A DNA stretch of 64,000 nt, taken from the NCBI GenBank assembly GCA_963851055.1, contig CAWKMY010000003.1:28261-92260 (forward strand), given 5' to 3'. Below are positions 3,207 to 49,508 of this stretch, one piece after another (the stretch's first letter is position 1; every line of letters begins with the position of its first letter). The notes beneath the pieces are model-generated. The model did no database searches. It was not told the DNA's origin and was given only the letters and a program-made list of their open reading frames with translations. A program made the position numbers and the translations under genes. This DNA comes from an uncultured bacterium. GTDB lineage: Bacteria; Patescibacteriota; Minisyncoccia; Phycocordibacterales; PALSA-1337.

Positions 3207-3590
3207 ATGTTCAGAAACTTCAGGATAATTAATGAGACACGTGGCGCTTTGCCACGTTTTTCATTTGAGGAGATGAAAGACACTGTTCTCGGCAAGCGTT
3301 ACGACCTGACTCTGATCGTCACCGATTCAAAGCGTATCAAGAAGCTTAATACCATATATCGTGGCAAAGAAAATCCAACGGATATTCTAAGTTTTCCAAT
3401 ATCTGATAACGAAGGCGAGATATACATGTGTCCGGCCGAGGCCAAGAAAGAGGCGAGGAAGTTCAACCGATCTTACGATAATTTCTTCGCATACCTTTTC
3501 ATACACGGTTGTACACATTTGAAAGGATACGACCATGGGGGTATAATGGATAGCGTAGAAGCTAAAATACGAAGCAAATTCGGGATTTAA
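3207..3590 (+). CDS. ybeY: rRNA maturation endoribonuclease YbeY
   Basis: Zinc-binding H-x3-H-x5-H motif HGCTHLKGYDH near the C-terminus. The 127-aa size is typical. Confidence 0.85.
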   Translation: MFRNFRIINETRGALPRFSFEEMKDTVLGKRYDLTLIVTDSKRIKKLNTIYRGKENPTDILSFPISDNEGEIYMCPAEAKKEARKFNRSYDNFFAYLFIHGCTHLKGYDHGGIMDSVEAKIRSKFGI

Positions 3591-5455: not shown

Positions 5456-6673
5456 ATGCCTCACATAACTCCTGATATCGAGACGTTTGCCCGCATCAAA
5501 GTCCTAGGCGTAGGTGGTTCAGGGCGTAATGCCGTTAACCACATGATCAATGCCAAGGTTAAAGGGGTTGATTTTATCGTCGTCAATACAGATGCCCAAG
5601 ATCTCCATGGATCACTTGCAAAGAAAAAAATACATATAGGCAAGAATATAACTCGCGGGCTTGGTACTGGTATGAACCCTGATCTCGGCCGCCGCGCAGC
5701 CGAAGAAACCCGCGATGAGATTCAGGAAGCTATCAAGGGTGCAGACATGGTCTTCGTCACTTGCGGTGAAGGCGGAGGTACTGGTTCGGGCGCGTCACCT
5801 ATGGTCGCTCGCGTAGCCAAGGAGCTCGGATGTCTCACTGTTGCCGTCGTCACCAAGCCTTTCTTCTTCGAAGGCCGCCAGCGTTCGCGCATTGCTGATA
5901 CCGCTCTGGAAGAACTTCGCAAAGAAGTCGACGCCATCATCGTCATACCTAACGATCGCCTTCTCTCATCTGTCAGCAAAGACACTACCGTCAAGAATGC
6001 ATTTGCCATGTGCGATGAGATATTGCGCCACGCTGTCGAAGGTATATCCGACCTCATCACTACTCCAGGACTCATCAACATAGACTTTGCCGACATCCGC
6101 ACAGTCATGGAGAATGCCGGATCAGCACTCATGGGCATAGGCTCAGCTACAGGCGAGAATCGCGCTATAGAGGCTGCCAAGGCCGCTATAAATAGCCCTC
6201 TTCTCGATGTTTCTATCACGGGAGCCAAGGGTGTACTCTTCTCCATTGCTGGTGGCGAGGACCTAACGATGTTCGAAATCCAAGATGCCGCCAAAGTCAT
6301 CACCGAATCTATCGACCCAGAAGCCAAGATAATCTTCGGTACAGTCCGCGACGACAAGCTCAAAAAGAACGAGGTCCGCGTCACTGTCATTGCTACAGGA
6401 TTTCCGGAACATGTAATGAATGCCAGGGCGGCGGGCTCTATGGTTTCCGCATCAGCGACAGAGGCTTCATCTAGCCCATTCGCCAAGGCTTCTGAGAAGC
6501 CGGTAAAGGAGCGCGGCAAGATATTCAATACTTTGACTGATAGGAATAAAGAGATACCTGTCGTAGAAAAAACTTCACCAGCCACAGCAGCCAAGAAAGA
6601 GGCTCCGAAAGTTGATGACGATGATGATTGGGGTGCAGTGCCGGCGTTCTTGCGAAGATCGAGGTTGAAGTAG
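5456..6673 (+). CDS. ftsZ: Cell division GTPase FtsZ
   Basis: IKVLGVGGSGRNAVNHM and the tubulin signature GGGTGSGASP, plus NTDAQDL and a C-terminal DDDDDWGAVPAFLRR peptide. ATG 5456 chosen, because the track start at 5369 overlaps the previous gene. Confidence 0.95.
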   Translation: MPHITPDIETFARIKVLGVGGSGRNAVNHMINAKVKGVDFIVVNTDAQDLHGSLAKKKIHIGKNITRGLGTGMNPDLGRRAAEETRDEIQEAIKGADMVFVTCGEGGGTGSGASPMVARVAKELGCLTVAVVTKPFFFEGRQRSRIADTALEELRKEVDAIIVIPNDRLLSSVSKDTTVKNAFAMCDEILRHAVEGISDLITTPGLINIDFADIRTVMENAGSALMGIGSATGENRAIEAAKAAINSPLLDVSITGAKGVLFSIAGGEDLTMFEIQDAAKVITESIDPEAKIIFGTVRDDKLKKNEVRVTVIATGFPEHVMNARAAGSMVSASATEASSSPFAKASEKPVKERGKIFNTLTDRNKEIPVVEKTSPATAAKKEAPKVDDDDDWGAVPAFLRRSRLK

Positions 6674-37389: not shown

Positions 37390-37504
37390 ATGTATTGAAA
37401 TTAACTTGTTAATTAATGCTAACGCAAGGATCATTCTACCACATCCTACTTGTAGTCAAGACGTACTGGTGCAAGACTTATTACCAAAGCACAAAATGCT
37501 GGTA

Positions 37505-37532
37505 TAAAAAACGCACCCGGTTAAGAGTGCGT
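37505..37532 (-). terminator. Rho-independent terminator overlapping the stop of the 37521..38756 gene
   Basis: The minus strand reads acgcac-tcttaaccgg-gtgcgt followed by tttttata. Confidence 0.55.
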
Positions 37533-38756
37533 ACCGCTTCCAACGATTTTTTGGAAAGCGGAGCTGATGCGGCCTCGCCTTTGAAAATAGATAGCTCCAA
37601 GCTCATATAGCCTGTCTATCATCTCCTTGCTCGTCTTCTTTTTGTTTGGCTGCCTAGGTTTCTTGGCTATGTTCCAGGCATCCACTTGTGCAGACATCGG
37701 AAACTTGACCAAAACTTTCAATATCTCCATGGTTATCCGATCACGATTATCTGAAGGCAGCTCCAGAAGCGGCCGGAGCGCCGGTTCTAGCTTGTCTACA
37801 GATCCGATTGCGGATACAAAGGCGCTGTATTCCCTCAATTCCCTAGCTATTTCGCCCTTGTTTCTCCCCGCCTTCAATTGTCGGCGTATCGCCTTCGAAA
37901 GGTCGAATGCGCTTCTACTGCCGCCGCAATGTTTATCCATGTAATCGATTATACAACGGCTGGTCTGCCAAACCGGTTTGAGACAGGCCGATTTCGGCAT
38001 GTATGTCGGAATAGGTGCTGCCTTAACCGTAAACCTTTCCACTGTGTTACTGGATACTGCATACTCGGATTTCCCTTTAGGTTGGGCTTCTGCTGACTGG
38101 CTCGCTGGTTCGGTCGGCGGCACTGTCGCCTTTTTAAGCGCTCTTTTGAACGGCACTATTGGCGCTGTTGATGCAATCGCTTTGCGAGTTTCCAAGATGT
38201 ATCCAATCATGGCTTCCGCCGTTGATGGCAGAGGCATTTCGATGTGACCAGGCACAGAACAATCATCATTAATTTTCGACAGTGGAGTCCTCTCGTTCGA
38301 TCTATCGGCGGCGTTACCGTCACCGGCGCAGAATGCTCCTGACTCCGGTATTACCGAGATAGATGACTCCATGGCTTTGATTTCCCAATGCGACACTTCT
38401 TCACCCTCAATGGTTATTTCCGATTCAGCCCCTTCTCCAGGAACAATGAACTGGACACGACCGGAGTCGATATCTTTAGGCCTGCCGCCAGAAATATGGA
38501 CAAGCCGACAAGGTTTGAAAGCTTTTTCGGGATGAGACTCATATTCGATCACGAAAACGCCATCTTTTCGGGATATTGGAGCAACAGCGGTAACATGACC
38601 ACCCGAGCGAGAAATGGACACGAATCCCGCTTCACGCAGGAATGTTTCGGCGGAAGACTGACTTTCCGTGTAGGCATCAGGGATGCTCACAGATATTACC
38701 TCCAGCAGAACCTTAGTCCCGCCAGATTTGGACGTGACTGATTTTTTCATTTTCAT
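37521..38756 (-). CDS. Hypothetical 411-aa protein (orphan at the edge of the accessory region)
   Basis: Long ORF with protein-like composition. The N-terminal half looks beta-rich; the C-terminal half is helical and basic (…AIRRQLKAGRNKGEIARELREY…). ATG 38756 (MKMKKSV) chosen. It has its own terminator. Confidence 0.5.
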   Translation of the reverse strand: MKMKKSVTSKSGGTKVLLEVISVSIPDAYTESQSSAETFLREAGFVSISRSGGHVTAVAPISRKDGVFVIEYESHPEKAFKPCRLVHISGGRPKDIDSGRVQFIVPGEGAESEITIEGEEVSHWEIKAMESSISVIPESGAFCAGDGNAADRSNERTPLSKINDDCSVPGHIEMPLPSTAEAMIGYILETRKAIASTAPIVPFKRALKKATVPPTEPASQSAEAQPKGKSEYAVSSNTVERFTVKAAPIPTYMPKSACLKPVWQTSRCIIDYMDKHCGGSRSAFDLSKAIRRQLKAGRNKGEIARELREYSAFVSAIGSVDKLEPALRPLLELPSDNRDRITMEILKVLVKFPMSAQVDAWNIAKKPRQPNKKKTSKEMIDRLYELGAIYFQRRGRISSAFQKIVGSGTHS

Positions 38757-38873
38757 AGGTGCTATTGGTTTGGTTGTGGTTTGTGAATCTAGAAAAACCC
38801 TACCATGAAAAAGAGTGGGAGGCAAGATTATTGAATTCAGCGAATTTAGTGAACTTAGCGTAGCCGAAATAAA

Positions 38874-39026
38874 TCAGTTTACGTCCATGTCTTCGGCTAT
38901 GGATCGGAGTTTCTCGATAGCCTCGGGGCCACCGTCCGCGAGCAGTGATTGGAGGTAGGCGAAATCAGGCTCACCATGTTCATTGCGCCAGTCTCTCATT
39001 CCATCAGTATTATTTTCTGGGTCCAT
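38874..39026 (-). CDS. Possible 50-aa acidic protein
   Basis: Hand translation: MDPENNTDGMRDWRNEHGEPDFAYLQSLLADGGPEAIEKLRSIAEDMDVN. Below the ORF-track cut-off. Confidence 0.3.
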   Translation of the reverse strand: MDPENNTDGMRDWRNEHGEPDFAYLQSLLADGGPEAIEKLRSIAEDMDVN

Positions 39027-39094
39027 AGGGTCTAAGTATAGCATTTATATGCCATGTCTGATTGGTAAGATCGTACGGGAGGAAGTTGGAACCA

Positions 39095-39607
39095 TTATGA
39101 ACCGGAAACTAGTCGGCGGTTCTTTATAAGATCATATAAGTATAAGATGGAGAGGGTTATGAGCACCCCCAAAAGTCCAAAGGTCAGATCGCCCATCGTG
39201 TCACTGTTGCTTGGTTGAGCGAGAAGATTCGGGTAGATCAAATTTATATGGAGTATATCCATTCTAAAGTGATCATAAGAGAATTCTAAAATCTCCCAGA
39301 CGACGCCGATGAGAGCGGCGATCCCCATGATCACTAATGCTTGCATCCATTTCTTATGAGAGAAAGCTGCCGCCTCCGGATAATAATGTCGAATCAAGAG
39401 GAGAGATACTGCGATGATTATTCCGCTTAAAAAATGAACAAGAGCGTCATAGCCGAAAAAACCGGCATTGCATCCCAGATACGTATAACATTTATCATTA
39501 CTCATGAGATGGAACCAGAAATCTCCGCTAAGTAAAGCAAAAATGTATATTGGCAAAAGGACCATGAGAACAATCCCTAGACGAGATCTGGTTTTAGAAC
39601 TTGGCAT
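39095..39607 (-). CDS. Membrane protein, YjdF/DUF2238-like
   Basis: 170 aa and multi-TM. The pattern YDALVHFLSG ... VWEILEFSYD ... SDTMGDLTFGLLG resembles my recollection of the YjdF family pattern. Confidence 0.45.
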   Translation of the reverse strand: MPSSKTRSRLGIVLMVLLPIYIFALLSGDFWFHLMSNDKCYTYLGCNAGFFGYDALVHFLSGIIIAVSLLLIRHYYPEAAAFSHKKWMQALVIMGIAALIGVVWEILEFSYDHFRMDILHINLIYPNLLAQPSNSDTMGDLTFGLLGVLITLSILYLYDLIKNRRLVSGS

Positions 39608-39685
39608 TGATGTTGTTTTTATTATATCTTAACTTATGCCAAATTAATTTGCTGGCCGGATGGGACGCTGTTGGAACCTATTTAG

Positions 39686-40297
39686 CTAGGATTTCTTCCC
39701 TATAATCTGAAGCCACGTGGTTTTACCTACCAATTCGCTATTTTCGTATACAATGCTCAATCCAAGATCGAAAAAGTGTTTCTTTAATTCATCCAGAGTG
39801 AAATAGCTGAAAAACCTCTCGTATTGATACCCGTAATCGTTTTCTTTTAGCACTTCTTCATCCTTTCCATCTGGTCTCGTACCTTTTACCGCTACATACA
39901 GATATCCGCCGGATATAAGGCATAATAATAGTCCTTTTAAAACATCAGAGATCTCTTTTTTAGGAATATGTAGAAGTGAGGCTTGTGCAAAAATACCGTC
40001 AAATTTGATACCAAGATTACTAACATCTTTCATATCCATTACATGAAATTGGGCACCGGGTACTTCTCTCTTAGCAATCTCAATCAATTTTTCTGAAAAA
40101 TCTATGCCGGTAACATTTAACCCTTTACCCGTAAGATATTTTGACTTAACTCCAGCTCCACAGCCAACATCAAGAATTTTCTTTTTATCTTTCAGAAATG
40201 AAATAAAAGTATTAGTTCCATCAACCCACCAATCGTCTCCCTTATGGTCATTGAACCAATCGGTTGCAATTCTATTGTAAGTATCTTTAAGATTCAT
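39686..40297 (-). CDS. Class I SAM-dependent methyltransferase
   Basis: Motif I ILDVGCGAGVKSKYL, post-I GIDFSEKLI and motif II FDGIFAQASLLHI. Confidence 0.8.
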   Translation of the reverse strand: MNLKDTYNRIATDWFNDHKGDDWWVDGTNTFISFLKDKKKILDVGCGAGVKSKYLTGKGLNVTGIDFSEKLIEIAKREVPGAQFHVMDMKDVSNLGIKFDGIFAQASLLHIPKKEISDVLKGLLLCLISGGYLYVAVKGTRPDGKDEEVLKENDYGYQYERFFSYFTLDELKKHFFDLGLSIVYENSELVGKTTWLQIIGKKS

Positions 40298-40317
40298 ATA
40301 ATTAAAAGATTAATAAT

Positions 40318-41007
40318 CTATTCAATAATGGGTAATTGATTAGAATTTGAAGAAGATGGTACTGGAGATTCTTGTTGAAGAACTTGTGGTTCAGTCAGTG
40401 GTAGTGGTTGCGCGGCCTTAAATATATTTTCTAATTCTGAATCTAAAGTAATATACATGTCAGACAATTTCGCTAGTTTTGTTTGAATCTTCTGTGAGCT
40501 ATCGAGAGCTGTAAGATAGACATTACCACCAAGATTCTGAACTGCCTCGAATAGTGGGATGTAATCCCTGTCATTTACTAGAAAGACAATATTAGACGCA
40601 CGTCCTCCAGCAAGAAGTAGCAGTACATCACATATTAATTTACTATCAAGCCCTTTCTCTGAGCGTGTAAAATAATCACGATATTCCGGCGAAAGTTTTT
40701 GCAGCTCGTCATCTGGGACAGCGTCAAGATTTTCTCCACATTGTTTGATCTGCCAATGATTTTTTGCGCCAGGCTCAGTTTCATTCGGTGTCTCCAACAT
40801 TGTTTGCAATCTTTTATCATTTTGCTTGAAATAATAAACTACACGAATTGTAGTACCTACCCATAAAGACCATTTGCGCATTAGCGCTTCTGTTAGGCGT
40901 TGTATATCCAATTTCCTGCTATTAAGAGTCGGTTTTGTCCTCCATATCTCAAAAATACTGGAAAATAAGTGAGAGCCATCTATTATAAAATAACCTTTAT
41001 TTTCCAT
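40318..41007 (-). CDS. NYN/LabA-like (PIN-related) ribonuclease-domain protein
   Basis: Conserved acidic positions appear in NYN order: FIIDGSHLF, EKGLDSKLICDVLLLA and VFLVNDRDYIPLFEAVQNLGGNVYL. The C-terminal tail is low-complexity. Confidence 0.65.
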   Translation of the reverse strand: MENKGYFIIDGSHLFSSIFEIWRTKPTLNSRKLDIQRLTEALMRKWSLWVGTTIRVVYYFKQNDKRLQTMLETPNETEPGAKNHWQIKQCGENLDAVPDDELQKLSPEYRDYFTRSEKGLDSKLICDVLLLLAGGRASNIVFLVNDRDYIPLFEAVQNLGGNVYLTALDSSQKIQTKLAKLSDMYITLDSELENIFKAAQPLPLTEPQVLQQESPVPSSSNSNQLPIIE

Positions 41008-41010
41008 AAA

Positions 41011-41307
41011 TTATTTAATGCCACATAATGGCCTATACTTTGTCCTTATAAGTCTTTCAAGTAACAGCCTGAAGTTCTGATCGTTGCTTATGTAAATAAA
41101 TAAGCCGGTATCATTACATCCATTACTATACCAGCAGGCCTTTCTTTCGTGGTTAATTAGTCGTGAATTTATATCGTTTGTTTCTCCAACGTCCACAACC
41201 TGATTTCTCCCATTTAAGATAATATACACACAGCCAAAATCTCGGTTAAATTTCCGAGTGTGATAGTACGGTCCTGTAAATGTATATCCCTCAACTTGAA
41301 TCGCCAT
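41011..41307 (-). CDS. Small GIY-YIG-like nuclease-domain protein
   Basis: 98 aa. GCVYIIL ... VVDVGETNDINSRLINH fits the pattern GIY-(~10)-YIG-x-T...R...H. Stop-to-start spacing to the NYN gene is 3 nt. Confidence 0.45.
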   Translation of the reverse strand: MAIQVEGYTFTGPYYHTRKFNRDFGCVYIILNGRNQVVDVGETNDINSRLINHERKACWYSNGCNDTGLFIYISNDQNFRLLLERLIRTKYRPLCGIK

Positions 41308-41322
41308 AATTTTGGAAATTTT

Positions 41323-42105
41323 CTAATTTTTATTGAATCGTTTGAAGTATGTATCAATCTCATCCCGGAGTTCAATACCAACCCTCTCAAAGCAATCAAG
41401 TAAGTCTTTGTATGTTCCCTTACCTCCAAGAAAATCCCAGAATTCATCTGCGACTTTGAGCTCATTTTCCAGATCAAGCATGCCACGCATTGTCCAGCGA
41501 GAATATTGTTCCGGCTCGTAAGGATTATAAGGAATAGCTATAAAAGTATGCACCTCTGCTTCCGGCTTGTTCGCCAAAATCACAGCCACCCACTCAAGCA
41601 GTGTGCGCTTGAATTCTTTAAAACCACCAGCATTTGGCTTTGCCGTTTTAATATCAAATAGATAAAAGGCACCGTCTTTTGATTCAAACATCAAATCTAC
41701 TTTTGTCGGCTTAACAGTTACCATCTTCCCTGTCTGGCAAACTTTTCTTATTCTCTCAATCTCTTTATTCTTATCGGGGGTACTCGTAGCAGTTGTAAGT
41801 CCATCTATAATTTTCTGAATCTCGCCTTGTGCCGCGGTACTGATCAATTCACCAGCTGTAGCTTGAGCAGTAGCCATTTTGAAATTCTTTTGTGCTAGAG
41901 CTAGGCCAACCGGCTCGAAAATACTGCTACCAAAATTGGTATTGAGTGAATGGATAAAAGAATACAACGCCAGTCTATCCTTTCCCAATAATCTGGTATG
42001 GAAAGGCATTGATGCCGGCTCCGGATTATAGTTCTGAAACTTATTGCGTAAACTAGCTTTTAATGTTTCCTCAACGGCTTTGATTTGTTCTTTAGATAAA
42101 GTCAT
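41323..42105 (-). CDS. Type II restriction endonuclease, TdeIII-like
   Basis: MPFHTRLLGKDRLALYSFIHSLNTNFGSSIFEPV matches my recollection of the RE_TdeIII family N-terminus. A PD-(D/E)xK-like VDLMFES...YLFDIKTAKPN is present. It starts 3 nt after the methyltransferase stop. Confidence 0.55.
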   Translation of the reverse strand: MTLSKEQIKAVEETLKASLRNKFQNYNPEPASMPFHTRLLGKDRLALYSFIHSLNTNFGSSIFEPVGLALAQKNFKMATAQATAGELISTAAQGEIQKIIDGLTTATSTPDKNKEIERIRKVCQTGKMVTVKPTKVDLMFESKDGAFYLFDIKTAKPNAGGFKEFKRTLLEWVAVILANKPEAEVHTFIAIPYNPYEPEQYSRWTMRGMLDLENELKVADEFWDFLGGKGTYKDLLDCFERVGIELRDEIDTYFKRFNKN

Positions 42106-42107
42106 GA

Positions 42108-43682
42108 TTATTTGAGTTTAAAATGGAAAATAATTTCTGAATAAGGGGTGCGATCACGCTCGGTTCGATTCAATACCGGCCTTTTGAATTGATTGACTAT
42201 TTTCATGCCGGTTTTTTCAGCAATCTGTGGATATAGGTTGTATTTATCATTCGCAACCAAGAATATATCCGGATTGTCAGTAAAGTATTTCTTGCAATTA
42301 TTGAGAACATCTGCAATCCCTTGAACATAAGATTGCTTAGCTTCAAAACCTTGACCTTTATAAAGTGGCCCTATTTCAAGATCGTCTTTACGCTTAAAAC
42401 CGAGCAGATCATAAGCATAAGCGTGTTGCTCGTGATAGTCAATTTGACCAACGTATGGTGGTGAGCAAAATATGCCGGAAATTTTTTGTTTCTTCAATAA
42501 TTTTGCAAACTCGGGATTATGCTTTTCTACCACCTCAAATATGTTTACTTTTCTAGAATCACCAGCAATAGCTGAATAATGAACAGGCTTACGCAACCGA
42601 TCGAACTCCTTCACTCGGCTCAATGTATCAAAAGCATAACGATTGAGCATTGCTTTAATCGAAAAAAGTGGTTTGCAGATTTTTTTATGTTTGAAACAGT
42701 AATAAGTCGTCAGTTGAGGTTCCTTGAGCGTAGCGAGATCGCTATGTGTCGTAGCTCTACATGATCGGATTGTTCGACTAAGAATAAGAGCCAGCATTTT
42801 TCTTGCTTTCAAATCTTTCTCAGACTTTACCGCCCTGAAAACGTGATCAATCTCTCTGCGAACACTATCCATAAACCATTTATCTAGAAATGATTTGGAT
42901 ATATCCTGCTTAATTTTCACAGAATATTTCTTAAGAAGATTTTGGTAAACTGGCAGGAATTCTTTTTCTTTTTTCACTGCAAATACATCTTCATTGACAT
43001 TATTTTGGTTCATCTCATATTTGTAGTCAGATCCAGGAAAATACTTATTGTTGAATTTAGCAAGTTCTACGAGTAATTCTTCCTCAAACTCATGAATCTT
43101 ATTATCGTGTTCAAAAGTCTGAAGCGCATCTATCATCTTTTTTATCGCCTTTTGTAGATACTCGTGATCATAATGCGTAGCTTTACAGCTTGCTATCATG
43201 CAGTTAAATTCTGATACATCTATGCCTACAGAATGAATTCCACTCTCAATAGATTGTATTATTGTTGTGCCGGATCCAAGAAATGGATCTAGAATAATGT
43301 CACCTTGCTTGAAATATACCTGTCTCTTGAAATCGTCGATATGACTATCAACGAAATACTCAACCAATTGAGGAATAAATTTGCCCTTGTATGGATGAAG
43401 ACGGTGTACATGCTTGGTCGTATCTTTTTCTCTCAGATTATCAAATGAAAGTGCCCAGTTTAGATCATCGCCTAACTTTTTTTTCCAATCAGCTTCACGC
43501 TTAGTGTTAGAAGATTTGTAATACCCCTTTAAATCATTGGTGTTGACCATCGTTGAACCATTTTCTCCATGCTTTTTAACCTTGCCATATTGAACAAGGT
43601 AGGAGATATTTGCGGGTGTAACCTCTTTTTCGAGATAATCAGTTGCCCACTTTGATGCTTCTGGAATAGTTATTAATGGCAT
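42108..43682 (-). CDS. DNA methyltransferase, alpha-class order (motif I ... TRD ... motif IV), SPPY type (N4-C or N6-A)
   Basis: HRLHPYKGKFIPQL (motif X) and ILDPFLGSGTT (motif I) lie about 260 aa before FCSPPY (motif IV). Confidence 0.85.
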   Translation of the reverse strand: MPLITIPEASKWATDYLEKEVTPANISYLVQYGKVKKHGENGSTMVNTNDLKGYYKSSNTKREADWKKKLGDDLNWALSFDNLREKDTTKHVHRLHPYKGKFIPQLVEYFVDSHIDDFKRQVYFKQGDIILDPFLGSGTTIIQSIESGIHSVGIDVSEFNCMIASCKATHYDHEYLQKAIKKMIDALQTFEHDNKIHEFEEELLVELAKFNNKYFPGSDYKYEMNQNNVNEDVFAVKKEKEFLPVYQNLLKKYSVKIKQDISKSFLDKWFMDSVRREIDHVFRAVKSEKDLKARKMLALILSRTIRSCRATTHSDLATLKEPQLTTYYCFKHKKICKPLFSIKAMLNRYAFDTLSRVKEFDRLRKPVHYSAIAGDSRKVNIFEVVEKHNPEFAKLLKKQKISGIFCSPPYVGQIDYHEQHAYAYDLLGFKRKDDLEIGPLYKGQGFEAKQSYVQGIADVLNNCKKYFTDNPDIFLVANDKYNLYPQIAEKTGMKIVNQFKRPVLNRTERDRTPYSEIIFHFKLK

Positions 43683-43720
43683 GCCACAAGTTTACCATTT
43701 ATTTTAAAATCAACGAAATT

Positions 43721-44029
43721 TCGCCTCCCGTTCTACCGCCTTTGGAGGGTAGGTGGTGCGCGAGACGCTTGGCAGATAAGGGCGCGTTGACCTCCGCCCG
43801 TCACTACGGATGTTGTTCGCGCCTAGCTCATGTTGGCATGGCGAGAGCGGCCGACTGTCTGTGTGTTACAGACTGTCGGGTAAGCGGAGCCATGCGAACA
43901 GGAGCGTAAGGCGCGCCACAATCGTTATTAGGGCGGAGGTGTACGCGCCCGTACTCTCTCCTGCCACGCGCTCTCGTGCAAGCGGCCGCGCACGACCTGC
44001 CCGGAAAAGGCGGTTGGAGCGGGAGGCAC
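43721..44029. other. GC-rich ~310-bp element with complementary termini (structured RNA or MITE-like element)
   Basis: Sharp GC-rich block between AT-rich genes. gcctcccg (43723-43730) pairs with cgggaggc (44020-44027), and accgcc (43735-43740) pairs with ggcggt (44009-14). Nested internal helices include ccgactgtctg-N7-cagactgtcgg. Only Arg/Ala-rich junk ORFs occur here. Confidence 0.5.
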
Positions 44030-44047
44030 CACAGGCACTTCATGGTT

Positions 44048-44076
44048 TTGACTTAGGGGCCAGATAGATGTAGATT
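44048..44076 (+). promoter_or_regulatory. Sigma70-like promoter (TTGACT-17 nt-TAGATT) for the serine hydrolase gene
   Basis: ttgact at 44048-53 and tagatt at 44071-76, 10 nt before ATG 44086. It lies downstream of the GC-rich element. Confidence 0.45.
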
Positions 44077-44085
44077 AAATACGTT

Positions 44086-45441
44086 ATGAATAACCAAATC
44101 TCAACAGCTATCCAACAGATCGGTCATATCGTAGACGCATGGATTCCTATGAAAATTAAATACGATAAGACGCCGGGAATTTCGATTGCCATTTCTCATG
44201 GCGGTAAAATTATTTACGCGAGAGGTTTTGGTTTTGCAGATGTTGCACATAAGCAAAAAGCGTCTGCCGAAACTTTGTATCATATTGCCTCGCATTCAAA
44301 AATGTTCACGGCGGTTGCTATTATGAAGCTTGTCGAGGAAGGCAAGCTCAGGCTCGATGACCATGTTTCTGACTATATTGACTGGTTTAAGGCAAAGGCT
44401 AAGCATAGCGATTCATCTCATATCACGCTTCGCCAATTACTGTCACATACGGCAGGTGTCTTTCGTGACGGTGATACGCCACATTGGGAAAACGGCAAGT
44501 TTCCAAAAGATTTGAAGAAATCTTTTTCTTCCAAGTCATTAGTCATCGAAAATCTGACTACATTTAAGTATACCAATTACGGCTATTCACTTTTGGGATT
44601 GGTGATTGAAAAGGCCTCTGGAATGTCGTATGAAGAATATGTGACAAAAAAGATTCTTAAGCCACTCGGTATGAAAAATACGTATGTAGATTACAAGAAA
44701 GAAATAAAACACATAGCTACCGGGTATGGTTCTGAAACACCGGATCAAAAGAGAATAGTTTTTAGCCATTACGCCACAAATGCTTATGCACCAGCCACAG
44801 GCTTTGTTTCAAACGCAACTGATCTGATAAAGTTCATATCATCTCTTTCGCTTAATCATGACTCACCACATGTCATCAACAGAGAATCTGTTAAAGAGAT
44901 GGGTAGACCCCATGCCAAGACGGAAGATGGCGATGAATATGGATTAGGTTTGGATATAAGCTATCTTGATGGCCGAAAAATCATAGGACACGGAGGCGGT
45001 TTCAATGGTTTCATCACGCGTACCGCTTTAGACACAAAAAATGATATTGGCGTTGTCGTCCTCACAAATACTTTGGGTTCAAATGCAAGCCAGATAACAG
45101 ACGGGTTGTTGGATTCTATTGATCGGATCATAAATAAATCTAAAGACTACTCCAGCCACTCAAAAATATCTTATGCGAAATATGAAGGTATATATCGAAG
45201 CGTTTGGGGAGACAGTGTGATATCTAGAGCTAAAGATATCCTGATAAGCTATGGTCCTAAGACTAATAATCCCTTAAAGGGCGCTCGTAGATTTATTCCT
45301 ACTTCGTCACCACACACTTTCGTAATGAAATCCAAATACGTTTACGGTTCGTACGATGAAGAGGCGGTATTCACAAATTTTAAGAACGGAAAAGCCCAAA
45401 AATTACTTGAGGCTTCTATGCCACTGAAAAGAATACAGTAA
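44086..45441 (+). CDS. Serine hydrolase of the class C beta-lactamase / PBP4* / esterase family
   Basis: The S-x-x-K nucleophile is ASHSKMFTAVA, the Y-x-N motif is YTNYGYSLLG, and the third box is GHGGGFNGF. Confidence 0.8.
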   Translation: MNNQISTAIQQIGHIVDAWIPMKIKYDKTPGISIAISHGGKIIYARGFGFADVAHKQKASAETLYHIASHSKMFTAVAIMKLVEEGKLRLDDHVSDYIDWFKAKAKHSDSSHITLRQLLSHTAGVFRDGDTPHWENGKFPKDLKKSFSSKSLVIENLTTFKYTNYGYSLLGLVIEKASGMSYEEYVTKKILKPLGMKNTYVDYKKEIKHIATGYGSETPDQKRIVFSHYATNAYAPATGFVSNATDLIKFISSLSLNHDSPHVINRESVKEMGRPHAKTEDGDEYGLGLDISYLDGRKIIGHGGGFNGFITRTALDTKNDIGVVVLTNTLGSNASQITDGLLDSIDRIINKSKDYSSHSKISYAKYEGIYRSVWGDSVISRAKDILISYGPKTNNPLKGARRFIPTSSPHTFVMKSKYVYGSYDEEAVFTNFKNGKAQKLLEASMPLKRIQ

Positions 45442-45452
45442 AGAGGAGCCAC

Positions 45453-46190
45453 TTACTTCTTCTTTATCTTGACTTTGCCTACTGCCGGCAACAATCCCGA
45501 AGCAAATTGGGCAAGCGGATTGGTGTTCATGAAATCCATCATATTCAGAGTTGCCTTTTGAATATCTTCCGGACTTCCTTTCATAGATTTGGTAATACCT
45601 CTACAAGATTTCAAATAGTTTGTATAGGGAATCGACATCGAACCAATTCATAGCATCGAGAAAATTCGATCCGTCGAAATACCTTATAGCTTTGCCGATT
45701 TCCATGTCGGTGATTTCATCATAGCCGTTAGTGATAGTCACCCCTTTCTTTTTGAGGTTGTTCAGATAATTCGGGATATGCTTGTCAATGTAATTCAGGA
45801 TATACCAGCCCCAGCGTTCAAACTCAATCTTCAATATTTTTCCATCGTTCAATAGGTAGATCTTCTTCGAAATCAGAGCGAGACCTTGTCCGAGATCTTG
45901 GCGAACCGCGGGTCTGAAAGCGTCTTCAAATAGCTCAAAAGAACAGCGAATAATTGCTGTGGCAGGATATCTCTCTGTTTGCCGACAAACGCACCTTCAA
46001 AATCTTTAATATCCCCTTTCTTGGATCTTTCCTCCACCTTTAAATTTTCCGGTCTTGTAATATTTATCTTCCGCCTGCACTGTTTTGATATTCTTCAAGT
46101 CCTCGTCCATCACTCTCACGGTGGCATCAAGGATTCTTGTTTGCCTAGAGTGACGTCAAAATCCAAGAGCAAGCTGATCAAATATTTATT
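45453..46190 (-). pseudogene. Series of short minus-strand ORF fragments in three frames (decayed gene)
   Basis: Protein-like segments switch frame at least three times: ...MDEDLKNIKTVQAEDKYYKTGKF / KGDIKDFEGAFVGKQRDILPQQLF / FELFEDAFRPAVRQDLGQGLALISKKIYLLNDGKILKIEFERWGWYILNYIDKH...DVDSLYKLFEIL* / SIPYTNYLKSCRGITKSMKGSPEDIQ.... The long segment has no proper start. Confidence 0.35.
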
Positions 46191-46538
46191 TATCAAGATC
46201 ATCGCCTACACTCACCGCTTCTTTTTGTTCCATACGGAATTTCTGGACAAAATAGGTGAATTTTTTCTGCAGGTCTATCCTTCTTGATCTGCTTCTCGCC
46301 ACTACTGGTCTACAATGCTCCCTGCATCGGTAATGTTTATCAGACAACTCCAATTCATGCCCAGATTCGCAAATACAAACTGCCTTTCTTGAAAAATGGC
46401 ATAGGCTCAATTCCTATTTCTTTGATAGTTTGTTTTCTCCTTCATTTTAATGAAAAATCCACAGACAAAATCCTTACTTTAAGCCATTCTCAAAATCTCA
46501 AAAGCATTTCCGCGAAACTCACCCTTTACGATACACCC

Positions 46539-46742
46539 ATGCAACAGTTTAGCCAATTACTAGAGCAGAGGGTCGTCGATTACTTCAAGCGCAAATACGG
46601 CTTGGAGATTTCGCCTGCTACCGCACAAGAATATCTTAACTCTTTTGCCGAATTGTTTCTAACCTGTGCAAGGTCAAGGAGAGGAAGCGTCCCGTCCAGC
46701 CAACGCTTTAGCGCGGCGGACGGGACGCGTATGACTTGCTAG
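46539..46742 (+). CDS. Possible 67-aa protein upstream of Rep
   Basis: MQQFSQLLEQRVVDYFKRKYGLEISPATAQEYLNSFAELFL... The C-terminal third runs through the GC-rich hairpin, so the true end is doubtful. Confidence 0.3.
   Translation: MQQFSQLLEQRVVDYFKRKYGLEISPATAQEYLNSFAELFLTCARSRRGSVPSSQRFSAADGTRMTC
46687..46728. repeat. GC-rich 42-nt inverted repeat (11-bp perfect arms gcgtcccgtcc / ggacgggacgc)
   Basis: Seen directly in the sequence. Inner pairs gcc/ggc and cgc/gcg extend the hairpin. It lies 38 nt upstream of the Rep start. Confidence 0.7.
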
Positions 46743-46765
46743 TTAACTAACATAATCAGATAGAC

Positions 46766-47528
46766 ATGGGCTACAACAAATTTATCAAATCCGGTAACAC
46801 ATTAGAAATATACTCATATGAACGATCTATCGAAATTCGTGAAGGACAACGCCGAGGTCATAAAGGCAGAAATGGTCTGTCGGGTGTGGCTTCTGGTGGA
46901 AGCAATTCATTATCACCCCAAGAATTCGAAGGAAAGCGCAAAGATAACGCGTCCCGCGCATCTATGGCTTTTAGACGGCTTATCCTATCTAACCTTGGAG
47001 GATCTGAATTACCTATACTCATTACTTGTACATACAAAGAGAACCAAACTGACATCAAGCAAGGATACTCGGATTTCACAGCTTTTGTCCAAGCTCTACG
47101 ATATAAATACGGACCACTTTTCAGGTACATCGCAGTACCAGAATTTCAAGCGCCGTGGAGCCGTTCATTTCCACGCTCTGTTCTGGGGGCTACCCGAAAC
47201 CACGGTTGAAACAGAGAGATATACCAGATTGGTTGCGGGGATGTGGGGACACGGATTCGTCTACGTCAAAATGACCGACGGCAACGAAAAGCTATCATCA
47301 TATCTTGCAAAATATATGGCTAAATCATTCATAGACTACAGATTGAAAAATCAGAAGGCATATACATGCTCTCGTAACCTTCTTCGCCCGCAGATCGTCG
47401 GCGGTATATCTTCATACAGCATTGATTGCTATTTGCAAGAATGCGGGGTGAAAAAACCGGAGGTTGATAAGTCTTACGATACGCATTGGTTAGGGCGAGC
47501 ACGACACAGGATTTACCAACTAGAATAA
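46766..47528 (+). pseudogene. Rolling-circle (HUH) replication initiator, split by a frameshift near 47147-47150
   Basis: Frame A gives ...PILITCTYKENQ (motif 1-like) ...FRYIAVPEFQ. The next frame continues KRRGAVHFHALFWG (HUH) ...SSYLAKYMAKS (Y-x-x-K-Y, two-tyrosine type). Neither ORF alone contains all the motifs. Confidence 0.65.
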
Positions 47529-47547
47529 ATTCGAGTATAATATTCTC

Positions 47548-47946
47548 ATGATTTTAGTTAAATCAAAAATTGGTCCAAGTAAAATCGAAGGTATCGGTTT
47601 ATTTGCAGATGAGCCTATTAGAAAAGGGACTAAAGTGTGGGGATTCGAGCCAAAACTGGATTTGGTACTCTCGAAGGATGAGGTTGAGAAATTATCGCCA
47701 GCTGCGCGAGAACAATTTTATAGATATGCTTATCTCGACAAAGTTCGACAAAAATATTTGCTGTGCGGTGATGATGCAAGATTTTTTAACCACTCGGATA
47801 GACCAAACTGTGATGAGACTACTGATAATGATTCAACCTTTGCGCTAAAAGATATTGACGTCGGCGAAGAATTGACAATCAATTACGGCGAATTTTACGG
47901 AAATATGAACGAGCATCCAGAGATCGAAAAAACAGCGGTCTTATAG
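47548..47946 (+). CDS. SET-domain protein (putative lysine methyltransferase)
   Basis: GIGLFADEPIRKGTKV, RFFNHSDRPNC (the NHS/CxPN box) and GEELTINYG (the ELxxxY box). 132 aa. Confidence 0.8.
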   Translation: MILVKSKIGPSKIEGIGLFADEPIRKGTKVWGFEPKLDLVLSKDEVEKLSPAAREQFYRYAYLDKVRQKYLLCGDDARFFNHSDRPNCDETTDNDSTFALKDIDVGEELTINYGEFYGNMNEHPEIEKTAVL

Positions 47947-47988
47947 AGTTCAGAAAATTTCTATTATCAACCTAAATTATTTAATTTC

Positions 47989-49497
47989 ATGAAATATATA
48001 CTTTACTGCCGAAAATCCACTGATACTGAAGACCGCCAAGTGCTTTCTCTTGATTCACAAGAAAAGGAGCTTTTGGCTATTGCGGAGAAGCTGAATCTGA
48101 AGATCGTAAAGGTATTCAAGGAAAGCCGCACTGCCAAGGAAGCAGGTCGTCCCATTTTCAATGAAGTGATTCAAATGATCAACGCCGGCAAAGCTGATGC
48201 TATTCTCTGCTGGAAACTAGACCGCCTAGCTCGCAACTTCTTGGACGGTGGACTCATCATGGATATGCTCCAGAAAGGCATCATTAAGGAAATACGTACC
48301 TACGAAGCCGTTCATCTGCCTAACGAGACATCATTCATCCTCGCCATGCAATTTGGTATGGCTAATCAGTACAGCCGTGACCTAAGCGTCAATGTGAAGC
48401 GTGGCAATCGTGAGAAATTATCCCGTGGCGAATGGCCGAATCATGCTCCGTTCGGATACCTGAATGACAAACCCACAAAGACGATCACTATTGATCCGAT
48501 TCGTTCAAAGTATGTCGTCCGTGCATTTCAGTTATACGCCACTGGCCGCTACGGCTTCAACGAAATCGCCAAAATCCTCTATGACGAAGGTTTGCGAACT
48601 TCATCCGGCAAAAAAGTATATCGTGGACACATTCATCGCTTCATCAGCCAGCCATTTTACTGTGGTCTCATGCTCCGTGAAGGTAAATACTATCCGGGCA
48701 AACACCAACCGCTCATTTCCAAGCAATTATTCGACGATGCTCAAAATGTTTTACATAACCGAAATCGCCCAAGGCTACAAAAGAAATTCTTCTCTCTCCG
48801 GGGATTCTTGAAATGCGAGAACTGTGGTTGTGCCTATACTGCCTCAACCAAGAAAGGCCACGATTACTATTACTGCACCAATGGAAAAGGCCACTGCGAA
48901 GCTCATTTGAAATACATGCGAGAAGCTACGATGTATGAATTGATCGCTCCAGTGCTTGATCAGCTTCGATATGATGAAGAAATCATTGACATCATGTTCA
49001 ATGCCGCCAAGGAACGCCAGCTCCATGACAACAGCTATGTCGAATCAATCGTAACTTCATGCCAGAGCCGTCTAGAATCGCTCAAGGCGAAAGAAGTACG
49101 CCTACTCGATACATTTCTCGATGGGCAAATTTCAAAGGAAATCTATGATGCTAAAGTCCTTGAAATACACAACGAAAAGATCTGCGCCGAAAAACAGATG
49201 AGCGAAGCTAAAACCAAGAATGACATTTTAACTTTGGAACCGACTAGAGAAGCATTTCTACTTGGAAACAGAGCCATGAAAAATTTTGTGGACGGAAATG
49301 ACAACGAAAAGCGTATCATAGCTTCAAAGTTACTTTGGAACCTTTCTATGAAGGACGGAAATATCGCTCAAGTAAGCTACAGAAGTCCGTATGACATCAT
49401 GGCAAAAGCACCCAAAACAGGTGATATTAAAACTTTGCTGCGGGGGAAGGAGTCGGACCTTCATACCAGGATTCAAAGTCCTGTGTCCTACCATTAG
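47989..49497 (+). CDS. Large serine recombinase (integrase)
   Basis: Resolvase N-terminus YCRKSTDTEDRQVLSLDSQ and WKLDRLARN, a recombinase domain, a zinc ribbon CENCGCAYTAS...YYYCTNGKGHCE and a coiled coil. The last 20 codons are antisense to tRNA-Gln. Confidence 0.9.
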   Translation: MKYILYCRKSTDTEDRQVLSLDSQEKELLAIAEKLNLKIVKVFKESRTAKEAGRPIFNEVIQMINAGKADAILCWKLDRLARNFLDGGLIMDMLQKGIIKEIRTYEAVHLPNETSFILAMQFGMANQYSRDLSVNVKRGNREKLSRGEWPNHAPFGYLNDKPTKTITIDPIRSKYVVRAFQLYATGRYGFNEIAKILYDEGLRTSSGKKVYRGHIHRFISQPFYCGLMLREGKYYPGKHQPLISKQLFDDAQNVLHNRNRPRLQKKFFSLRGFLKCENCGCAYTASTKKGHDYYYCTNGKGHCEAHLKYMREATMYELIAPVLDQLRYDEEIIDIMFNAAKERQLHDNSYVESIVTSCQSRLESLKAKEVRLLDTFLDGQISKEIYDAKVLEIHNEKICAEKQMSEAKTKNDILTLEPTREAFLLGNRAMKNFVDGNDNEKRIIASKLLWNLSMKDGNIAQVSYRSPYDIMAKAPKTGDIKTLLRGKESDLHTRIQSPVSYH

Positions 49498-49508
49498 ACG
49501 ACCCCGCA
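49438..49508 (-). tRNA. tRNA-Gln (anticodon UUG) with atypical T loop
   Basis: Acceptor TGCGGGG/CCCCGCA (U1-A72), D arm GTCT-AATGGTA-GGAC, anticodon arm CAGGA-CTTTGAA-TCCTG, T arm GAAGG-TCCGACT-CCTTC. The loop is TCC rather than the usual TTC. CCA is not encoded. Confidence 0.8.

Follow-up and report, generated by a model that had tools for sequence, protein, structure and literature searches.

We analysed a GC-rich block of about 310 nt in a 64,000-nucleotide stretch of DNA from an uncultured bacterium of the Patescibacteriota (this whole stretch is hereafter called the window). The block lies in a small island, at approximately 37500-49500, that has low GC (~38%) within a window of 46% GC and ends on the right at a tRNA gene. 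To its left is an operon encoding a restriction-modification (R-M) system. To its right are a gene for a beta-lactamase-family hydrolase, a gene for a small protein that we call F4, a motif resembling the nick site of rolling-circle elements, a gene for a rolling-circle replication protein (Rep) and a gene for a large serine integrase (Table 1). The block forms a giant hairpin. This structured element is genuine and conserved, and it had not been catalogued before. Judging from its fold and its setting, the hairpin could well serve an integrated rolling-circle replicon as a new type of single-strand origin (sso).

Fold and conservation of the GC-rich block

The original prediction, made from the letters of the window, described an abrupt GC-rich block in an AT-rich setting, and the GC profile bears this out. 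The block has ~65% GC and its surroundings, which read ...aaatttc at the left edge and accacag... at the right edge, have 33-40%. In 200-nt windows, GC ranges from 0.565 to 0.62 across 43700-44099, and the highest value of any 150-nt segment of the entire window (0.667) is reached in the block. In the minimum free energy (MFE) fold, the entire block forms a single rod of 112 base pairs. Its energy is -199.8 kcal/mol, against -132.6±5.0 in dinucleotide shuffles (z -13.5), and none of the 100 shuffles folded as well. The opposite strand gave -176.3 kcal/mol (z -9.6). With DNA parameters, the values were -113.1 kcal/mol for the + strand (z -11.7) and -99.4 for the opposite one.

The whole-block fold agrees with the prediction that the block is a discrete structured unit, with a long terminal helix closing it. 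The complementary ends noticed at that time are a genuine inverted repeat, but they are merely the base of a far larger structure: a helix of 13 bp (43723-43735 with 44015-44027) is extended by the pairing of 43736-43743 with 44006-44013. Among the nested helices that had been proposed further inside, ccgactgtctg/cagactgtcgg was retrieved as the apical hairpin and the two others were not. The ggagg/cctcc pairing falls outside the conserved fold, where GGAGGGTAGGT instead pairs with ACCTGCCC. In tcgtgc-N10-gcacga, GCACG pairs with the 5' arm, and the supposed partner is altered without compensation in L015, L011 and L021 (L-numbers, from L003 to L043, are labels of comparison contigs or loci). 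We also considered whether the block codes for protein or is a fragment of a GC-rich protein gene, as had been raised at the outset. This is out: stops occur in nearly all frames, the variation lacks 3-nt periodicity and the substitutions are compensatory.

Homologues were detected with nhmmer profiles and with a degenerate 21-mer matching both ends of the block, which was scanned against one genome per species. The scan returned genuine homologues in two contigs of one metagenome-assembled genome (MAG), in a Saccharibacteria MAG, in another MAG and in an 876-kb chromosome. A 20-mer from an invariant stretch retrieved nine further homologues in JGI metagenomes, and divergent hairpin types were gained via contigs retrieved with F4 as a marker protein. 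The total is 15 distinct full-length hairpin sequences, all apparently on contigs of Patescibacteria type. The hydrolase encoded beside the window hairpin has its best relatives in Patescibacteria as well. In phages, a blastn search of INPHARED gave just one 25-nt chance match, in Bordetella phages, and in scans of IMG/VR with 18-23-mers the only matches were to GC-rich phages, of seed length and due to chance.

The pattern of substitutions indicates that the structure of the hairpin is under selection. We used ten type-1 sequences as the main covariation alignment (101 pairs), in which 95.7% of the cells are paired. Covariation among homologues, by which the original prediction proposed to judge the element, is well above that of shuffled data: both sides had changed in 21 of the 101 pairs, where shuffles gave 8.4±2.0, and none of 500 shuffles reached 21. 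Slid-control alignments showed 3-7 such pairs. When divergent copies were included, compensatory changes were found in 27 of the 49 core pairs of the central and apical domains. Some helices do not vary within type 1, ACCUCCGCCC/GGGCGGAGGU among them, and L030, L013 and L042 rebuild these from different sequence.

The two strands of the element are not equivalent. The + strand is the more stable one in all 15 copies, by 6-28 kcal/mol, and the hairpin alignment has 59 G-U cells against 14 A-C cells. A symmetric cruciform of double-stranded DNA is disfavoured because the strand asymmetry of folding is consistent.

Table 1. Coordinates of the hairpin, of its parts and of the surrounding features in the window.
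Feature	Position	Strand	Remarks
Giant rod-like hairpin, ~310 nt	43721..44029	+ (folded strand; sense of rep, int and nick motif)	Fold, homologues, covariation
Basal (closing) helix, 5' half	43723..43743	+	Partner 44006-44027; 4 pairs changed on both sides
Basal helix, 3' half	44006..44027	+	Partner of 43723-43743
Large central internal loop, 5' side, GUCACYACGGA-N5-UU	43800..43817	+	Ends conserved, middle variable; opposite side 43916-43930
Apical hairpin	43851..43879	+	Other self-complementary sequences substitute in L021, L024, L030, L013
Unpaired 10-nt pyrimidine-rich bulge GUACUCUCUC	43951..43960	+	Nearly invariant in ten aligned type-1 copies; single substitutions in L018
F4, small two-helix protein marking the island family	46539..46742	+	185 homologues, AF2 model
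Putative double-strand origin: GC-rich repeat GCTTTAGCGCGGCGGACGGGACGC, then nick-site-like ACTTGCT	46705..46752	+	From F4 stop codon onwards, immediately 5' of rep
Rolling-circle Rep gene, HUH motif, PF23343	46766..47528	+	Split by 1-nt frameshift near 47152-47156
Large serine integrase of the island	47989..49497	+	3' end overlaps tRNA gene
tRNA-Gln	49437..49508	-	Integration target, right island end
Hydrolase gene and promoter-like site	44033..45442	+	Insertion at hairpin 3' edge relative to L019
Cargo R-M operon: N6/N4 methyltransferase and TdeIII-type endonuclease	41323..43682	-	Transcribed away from hairpin

Islands that carry the hairpin

Every copy of the hairpin was found in the same kind of small tRNA-integrated island. 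The usual order is cargo genes, hairpin, an optional variable gene, F4, nick-like motif, rolling-circle Rep and large serine integrase. Cargo genes 5' of the hairpin are usually on the opposite strand. The hairpin itself shares its strand with the nick motif, Rep and integrase in all cases and always lies upstream of the motif. Variable genes start directly at both of its sides, and the core made of F4, the putative double-strand origin, Rep and integrase is constant. The 3' end of the integrase gene overlaps a tRNA gene in other islands too (tRNA-Lys in L020, tRNA-Ile in L024 and a tRNA in L030). We retrieved a 21-nt repeat of the 3' end of tRNA-Lys in L009, at 2.1 kb to the left of the hairpin. 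Hence, the hairpin is internal to the island, and its identification with an integrase attachment (att) site or an island end is out. A search for the left boundary of the window island found no repeat of the tRNA-Gln 3' end of at least 12 nt.

There is one copy of the hairpin per island, with the exception of L013, the 876-kb chromosome. This locus has a divergent full copy (2777-2593, - strand) and a second copy (1129-1016, - strand) truncated after nt 107. The two bracket a gene for a 420-aa surface protein, and a gene of MNT/HepT toxin-antitoxin type abuts the truncation point.

The islands look like integrative rolling-circle replicons. Their Reps match either PF23343 or Phage_CRI (PF05144), and distant relatives of Rep occur in Firmicutes plasmids of 1.5-7 kb. 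Type-1 hairpins accompany Reps of both families: PF23343 in the window, L010, L015 and L019, and Phage_CRI in L018 and L040. The nick-like motif has the layout GCTTTAGCGCGGCGGACGGGACGC-N5-8-TGACTTGCT with the consensus core ACTTG[A/C]T. This core resembles the CTTG/ATA nick site of Reps of the pC194/phiX174 type, and we take it to be the nick site of the islands. The motif is conserved at 86-98% in L009/L020, L010/L023, L011, L015, L024 and L036, and variants are found in L026 (GACTTGATAT) and L030 (GACTTGATTA); it lies at 6663-6711 in L009, 7160-7215 in L026 and 6752-6704 in L030. Islands with CRI-type Reps carry instead, at the same position, a perfect 10-bp hairpin, CCCTAGGTGT-TAGTA-ACACCTAGGG. 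Each Rep type has its own origin-like sequence beside rep. The nick site or double-strand origin is not inside the giant hairpin, for which its TACTCT bulge had been considered: a separate, Rep-type-specific origin-like sequence adjoins rep, and L026-29 keep Rep and nick motif without the hairpin.

Comparison of the window with the other islands gave identities of 83-93% for the hairpin and 86-98% for the nick motif, against 68-72% for rep and 63-76% for int (63-69% over alignments of more than 900 nt). By this measure, the hairpin and the nick motif are the best-conserved parts of the island, above rep and int. This work defines a family of minimal tRNA-integrating islands that apparently join a serine integrase with rolling-circle replication, and it identifies two conserved cis elements in them, one of which is an uncatalogued motif of ~310 nt with strong covariation. 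To our knowledge, descriptions of mobile elements are scarce for Patescibacteria (CPR bacteria).

The marker protein F4 has 60-80 aa across the islands, and its AlphaFold2 (AF2) model has a pLDDT of 82 and helices at residues 6-20 and 26-48. At 1655-1682 of L040, upstream of the CRI-type rep, the repeat CCCTAGGTGT-TAGTA-ACACCTAGGG, with its 5-nt loop, overlaps the F4 C-terminus, which contains a conserved LTLGVSNT peptide; this inverted repeat is a candidate origin for the CRI-type Rep. A non-coding stretch of ~240 nt between hairpin and F4 (1204-1443 in L040 and 4452-4675 in L042) is conserved between these otherwise divergent islands with CRI-type Reps. Within rep, an open and conserved alternative-frame ORF of ~149 aa was found (1380-1829 in L010 and 1648-2097 in L015, in oriented coordinates, and 46818-47150 in the window). 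It could be an overlapping gene or a mere by-product of nucleotide conservation.

A candidate single-strand origin and rival readings

A rolling-circle replicon requires both a double-strand origin that is specific to its Rep and a single-strand origin as cis elements. That the hairpin provides the second one is the reading we place first, because it fits in location, strand, size, covariation, independence of Rep and dispensability; we regard the case as finely balanced. The fold, its strand bias and its conservation were observed, as were the nick-like motif and the order of the genes. Starting from these, we propose that the island leaves the tRNA gene as a circle through excision by the serine integrase, and that Rep nicks the + strand at ACTTG(C/A)T upstream of rep, as the motif and the Rep family suggest. 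Leading-strand synthesis would then peel off the + strand. Because the hairpin lies upstream of the nick site, it would be displaced late and, once single-stranded, fold into the GC-rich rod, some 150 bp in length. Such a duplex-like rod with conserved bulges, free of single-stranded DNA-binding protein (SSB), may be recognised by the host RNA polymerase or primase, and priming by the host at the rod would start the synthesis of the complementary strand. As the host, and not Rep, would be responsible for recognition, one and the same hairpin could serve islands with different Rep families as an exchangeable module.

Known sso are host-dependent, lie on the displaced strand, and are orientation-specific, structure-dependent and exchangeable; the integrative element ICEBs1 has an orientation-specific and structure-dependent one (PMC4595007). 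The islands encode an HUH Rep and carry a putative double-strand origin, the window rep itself being frameshifted. Like the elements ssoA, ssoU, ssoT and ssoW and sso1 of ICEBs1, which is likewise an integrative rolling-circle element, the hairpin spans a few hundred non-coding nucleotides, with extensive intrastrand pairing (the DNA-parameter fold and the covariation) and in a fixed orientation to the leading-strand origin. Its orientation-specificity is seen through a bioinformatic proxy, namely its presence on the nick/Rep strand and the higher stability of that strand. Structure, more than sequence, carries the function of sso elements, and these are modular and dispensable, as is the hairpin, which is missing from L026-29. 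Unlike the known sso, the hairpin is one long GC-rich rod and not several stem-loops, it has no promoter mimic for RNA polymerase, its hosts are Patescibacteria and its role is a proposal made from sequence. It does not resemble ssoA (RSB, CS-6), ssoU, ssoT or ssoW: the CS-6-like TAGCG does occur, within the stem rather than in the terminal loop.

Ff phages offer a parallel in gene order. Their intergenic region has a packaging hairpin A, minus-origin hairpins B and C, and the plus-origin nick site upstream of gene II. The islands share with them the order of large plus-strand hairpin(s), nick site and G2P-type Rep, and the island Reps belong to the G2P/ORF2 families (PF05144, PF23343). Unlike the phages, the islands carry a serine integrase, no coat or assembly genes could be recognised in them, and a stretch of genes spanning 1-3 kb can lie between hairpin and nick motif.

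Several observations weigh against a single-strand origin. The hairpin is kept in the Rep-less islands L009/L020, L024 and L036, which retain the nick motif, and it is absent from L026-29 despite an intact F4-Rep-integrase core and with no other strongly folding region in its place. A circular (excised) form should show a terminal repeat, but no fetched contig has one, and a blastn search of the 72,556 plasmids of PLSDB gave no match to the hairpin. A promoter scan found no -35/-10-type promoter inside the block on either strand, and the stem thus lacks the -35/-10 mimic seen in RNA-polymerase-dependent sso, Frpo elements and M13 minus origins. Four wobble pairs are kept as G-U in 7-9 of the ten sequences, which fits somewhat better with RNA than with DNA. 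In the window, rep is frameshifted by an extra C (caagcgCCgtgg) directly ahead of the HUH motif: one frame encodes the N-terminal 129 aa of the Rep, which share 62% identity with the L010 Rep, and a different frame encodes the catalytic part. This is either a pseudogene or an assembly error. As a consequence of the frameshift, the window hairpin would be either a still-intact relic or dependent on a Rep supplied in trans.

If the hairpin is an sso, it would be the first candidate for the phylum, since we know of no sso element described before in Patescibacteria. It would also offer a handle for replicating vectors in organisms without genetic tools.

The strongest competitor, which we hold as a tentative possibility, is a non-coding RNA of ~310 nt from the + strand, either stand-alone or processed, that acts as island cargo or regulator. 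It might possibly be a 6S-like rod that binds RNA polymerase through a central bubble, a substrate of RNase III, or a decoy aimed at a protein of the host or of a defence system. The greater stability of the + strand, the conserved G-U pairs and the strong covariation would suit an RNA, and so would the contrast in GC with the surroundings, which the tRNAs share (tRNA GC 0.56-0.58). Conserved unpaired stretches point the same way: the GUACUCUCUC bulge, the recurrent UAAG/CAAG bulges and the ends of the central loop. The terminal loops of the copies are CGU, GAA or GAUUA, and not the GNRA or UNCG typical of structured RNAs. In the window, a promoter-like ATGCCA-18-TAAAAT (43681-43710) ends 10 nt before the block; however, the upstream AT-rich flanks of the homologues are not alignable, and their -10-like hexamers stand at variable distances of 4-21 nt. 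U-runs follow the hairpin at 10-20 nt in several loci, yet no intrinsic terminator was found when we looked for one. The original prediction had offered a stand-alone structured RNA. The discrete structured element is there, but no positionally conserved promoter, intrinsic terminator or Rfam relative was found for it.

Two known structured motifs were compared with the hairpin. The first belongs to a class of GC-enriched structured motifs known in rolling-circle plasmids, GEBRO (GC-Enriched, Between Replication Origins; Weinberg et al. 2017, PMC5737381). GEBRO, from plasmids of the pUA140 type, is like the hairpin a non-coding structured motif of a few hundred nt with suspected ssDNA or RNA function (PMC5737381), and differs in taxa and architecture. 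The second, 6S RNA, shares the rod shape, in which long irregular helices flank a large central internal loop; in contrast, the hairpin has ~310 nt instead of ~185, is borne by mobile islands and has no evidence of transcription. Rfam 15 gave no match to the block at gathering score and none at E<=10 to 43600-44150; the families covered include 6S, GEBRO, HEARO, SRP and RNase P. The authors of the GEBRO study note that ssDNA and RNA motifs are not reliably separable by bioinformatics (PMC5737381), a further point against preferring a single-strand origin, and sequence alone cannot separate the two readings here. Because of the rolling-circle context and the nick-like motif on the same strand, which the original prediction had overlooked, a function as ssDNA is at least as likely as one as RNA. 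The fixed orientation of the hairpin to the nick motif, and its co-conservation with it, are also more directly explained by replication. If the hairpin is nevertheless an RNA, it would represent a new class of large, rod-shaped non-coding RNA specific to these islands. Either way, it is a sequence tag for finding the islands and their defence cargo, such as R-M systems.

It is unlikely that the hairpin is instead a promoter on ssDNA. Frpo/ssi elements are reportedly such promoters of the leading regions of conjugative plasmids, as described by Masai and Arai in 1997; they function on only one single strand. Frpo elements drive methyltransferase and anti-defence genes in these regions (PMC11541004). 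With RNA polymerase starting in the hairpin and the + strand as template, leftward genes (in the window the R-M methyltransferase first) would be expressed before the second strand is made, and such a start could also prime replication. Like Frpo/ssi, the hairpin is long, imperfect and, if displaced as we propose, on the displaced strand, and it often stands beside methyltransferase or anti-defence genes. The gene at its 5' end is mostly on the opposite strand, encodes a methyltransferase in the window, L019 and L042, and has the fitting orientation in the window, L009, L010, L015, L018, L019 and L042. The orientation is nevertheless mixed, since 5'-side genes are co-directional with the hairpin in L030-34 and L036-39. 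Moreover, a scan and an inspection of both arms found no -35, -10 or UP elements reconstituted in the stem, and no conjugation machinery or oriT is evident.

Cargo exchange and decay around the window hairpin

Compared with L019, the window has an insertion at the hairpin's 3' edge, which consists of the hydrolase gene together with its promoter. The scan recovered a promoter-like TTGACT-17-TAGATT at 44048-44076, where the original prediction had placed the promoter. The claim of that prediction that the block lies outside the hydrolase transcript agrees with this later arrival of gene and promoter. We discarded a conserved leader of the hydrolase, since the gene is an insertion relative to L019 and L003 encodes a 73%-identical hydrolase without a hairpin upstream. 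The insertion is flanked by GGAGGCACCAC (44023-44033) and AGAGGAGCCAC (45443-45453), which match at 8 of 11 positions and form an imperfect direct repeat of the hairpin 3' end. To its right, at 45453-46410 (- strand), a 374-aa gene is broken up into three short ORFs; L019 has this gene intact (11074-12198, - strand). The window island looks decayed from its sequence. Besides the R-M system, it also carries genes of the NYN-domain, GIY-YIG, S-adenosylmethionine (SAM)-methyltransferase and SET-domain types.

On the other side of the hairpin, window positions 41306-43755 share 90.6% identity with 1732-4180 of L042. This stretch spans the R-M operon and reaches ~35 nt into the hairpin. Beyond these ~35 nt the two hairpins diverge, and the L042 Rep is also very different. 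Because the identity ends ~35 nt into the hairpin, it reflects recombination and not transposition, and the alignment places the breakpoint with L042 inside the basal stem. The R-M operon likewise abuts a divergent hairpin in L042/L043. Since the operons match and the hairpins diverge, recombination has exchanged modules within or beside the hairpin.

These junctions raise the question of whether the hairpin is a recombination module, a site or hotspot of cargo exchange, and not a replication signal. We consider such a recombination module improbable. The same low standing applies to its more specific form, in which the hairpin would be a folded-strand, attC-like module for cassette capture run by the rolling-circle Rep or the serine recombinase. 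Variable genes beginning immediately beside the hairpin next to a constant core, the hydrolase inserted exactly at its 3' edge with a partial repeat of its end, the L042 breakpoint and the two L013 copies bracketing one gene would all fit such a module. However, serine integrases act on short double-stranded att sites, and the island's own att repeat in L009 is remote from the hairpin. Any conserved sequence shared between islands is also a passive substrate for homologous recombination, and the junctions observed are few. Integron attC sites are imperfect palindromes of 57-141 nt, recognised by a tyrosine integron integrase and present once per cassette in an array. The hairpin is not one of them: it has ~310 nt, the integrase is of the serine type, and there is no array, two copies being found in L013 only.

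A non-autonomous element of the MITE type with terminal inverted repeats, the other suggestion of the original prediction, is very improbable: the ends are complementary and copies exist in several genomes, but both flanks confirm the lack of a target-site duplication noted at the time, there is one copy per island, none elsewhere in the window and always in the same position relative to the core, and the complementarity extends over the full length, where compensatory changes keep it, and not over the termini alone. A bidirectional terminator or insulator is likewise unlikely, as most of the flanking genes are directed away from the hairpin.

The genes that flank the hairpin have -10-like boxes 4-9 nt before their start codons and no Shine-Dalgarno sequence. 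Such leaderless-type sites were found in the window at 44071-44088 and 43683-43720, in L009 at 5700-5723 and in L015 near 3555-3575. This arrangement suggests that mRNAs are leaderless in these islands.

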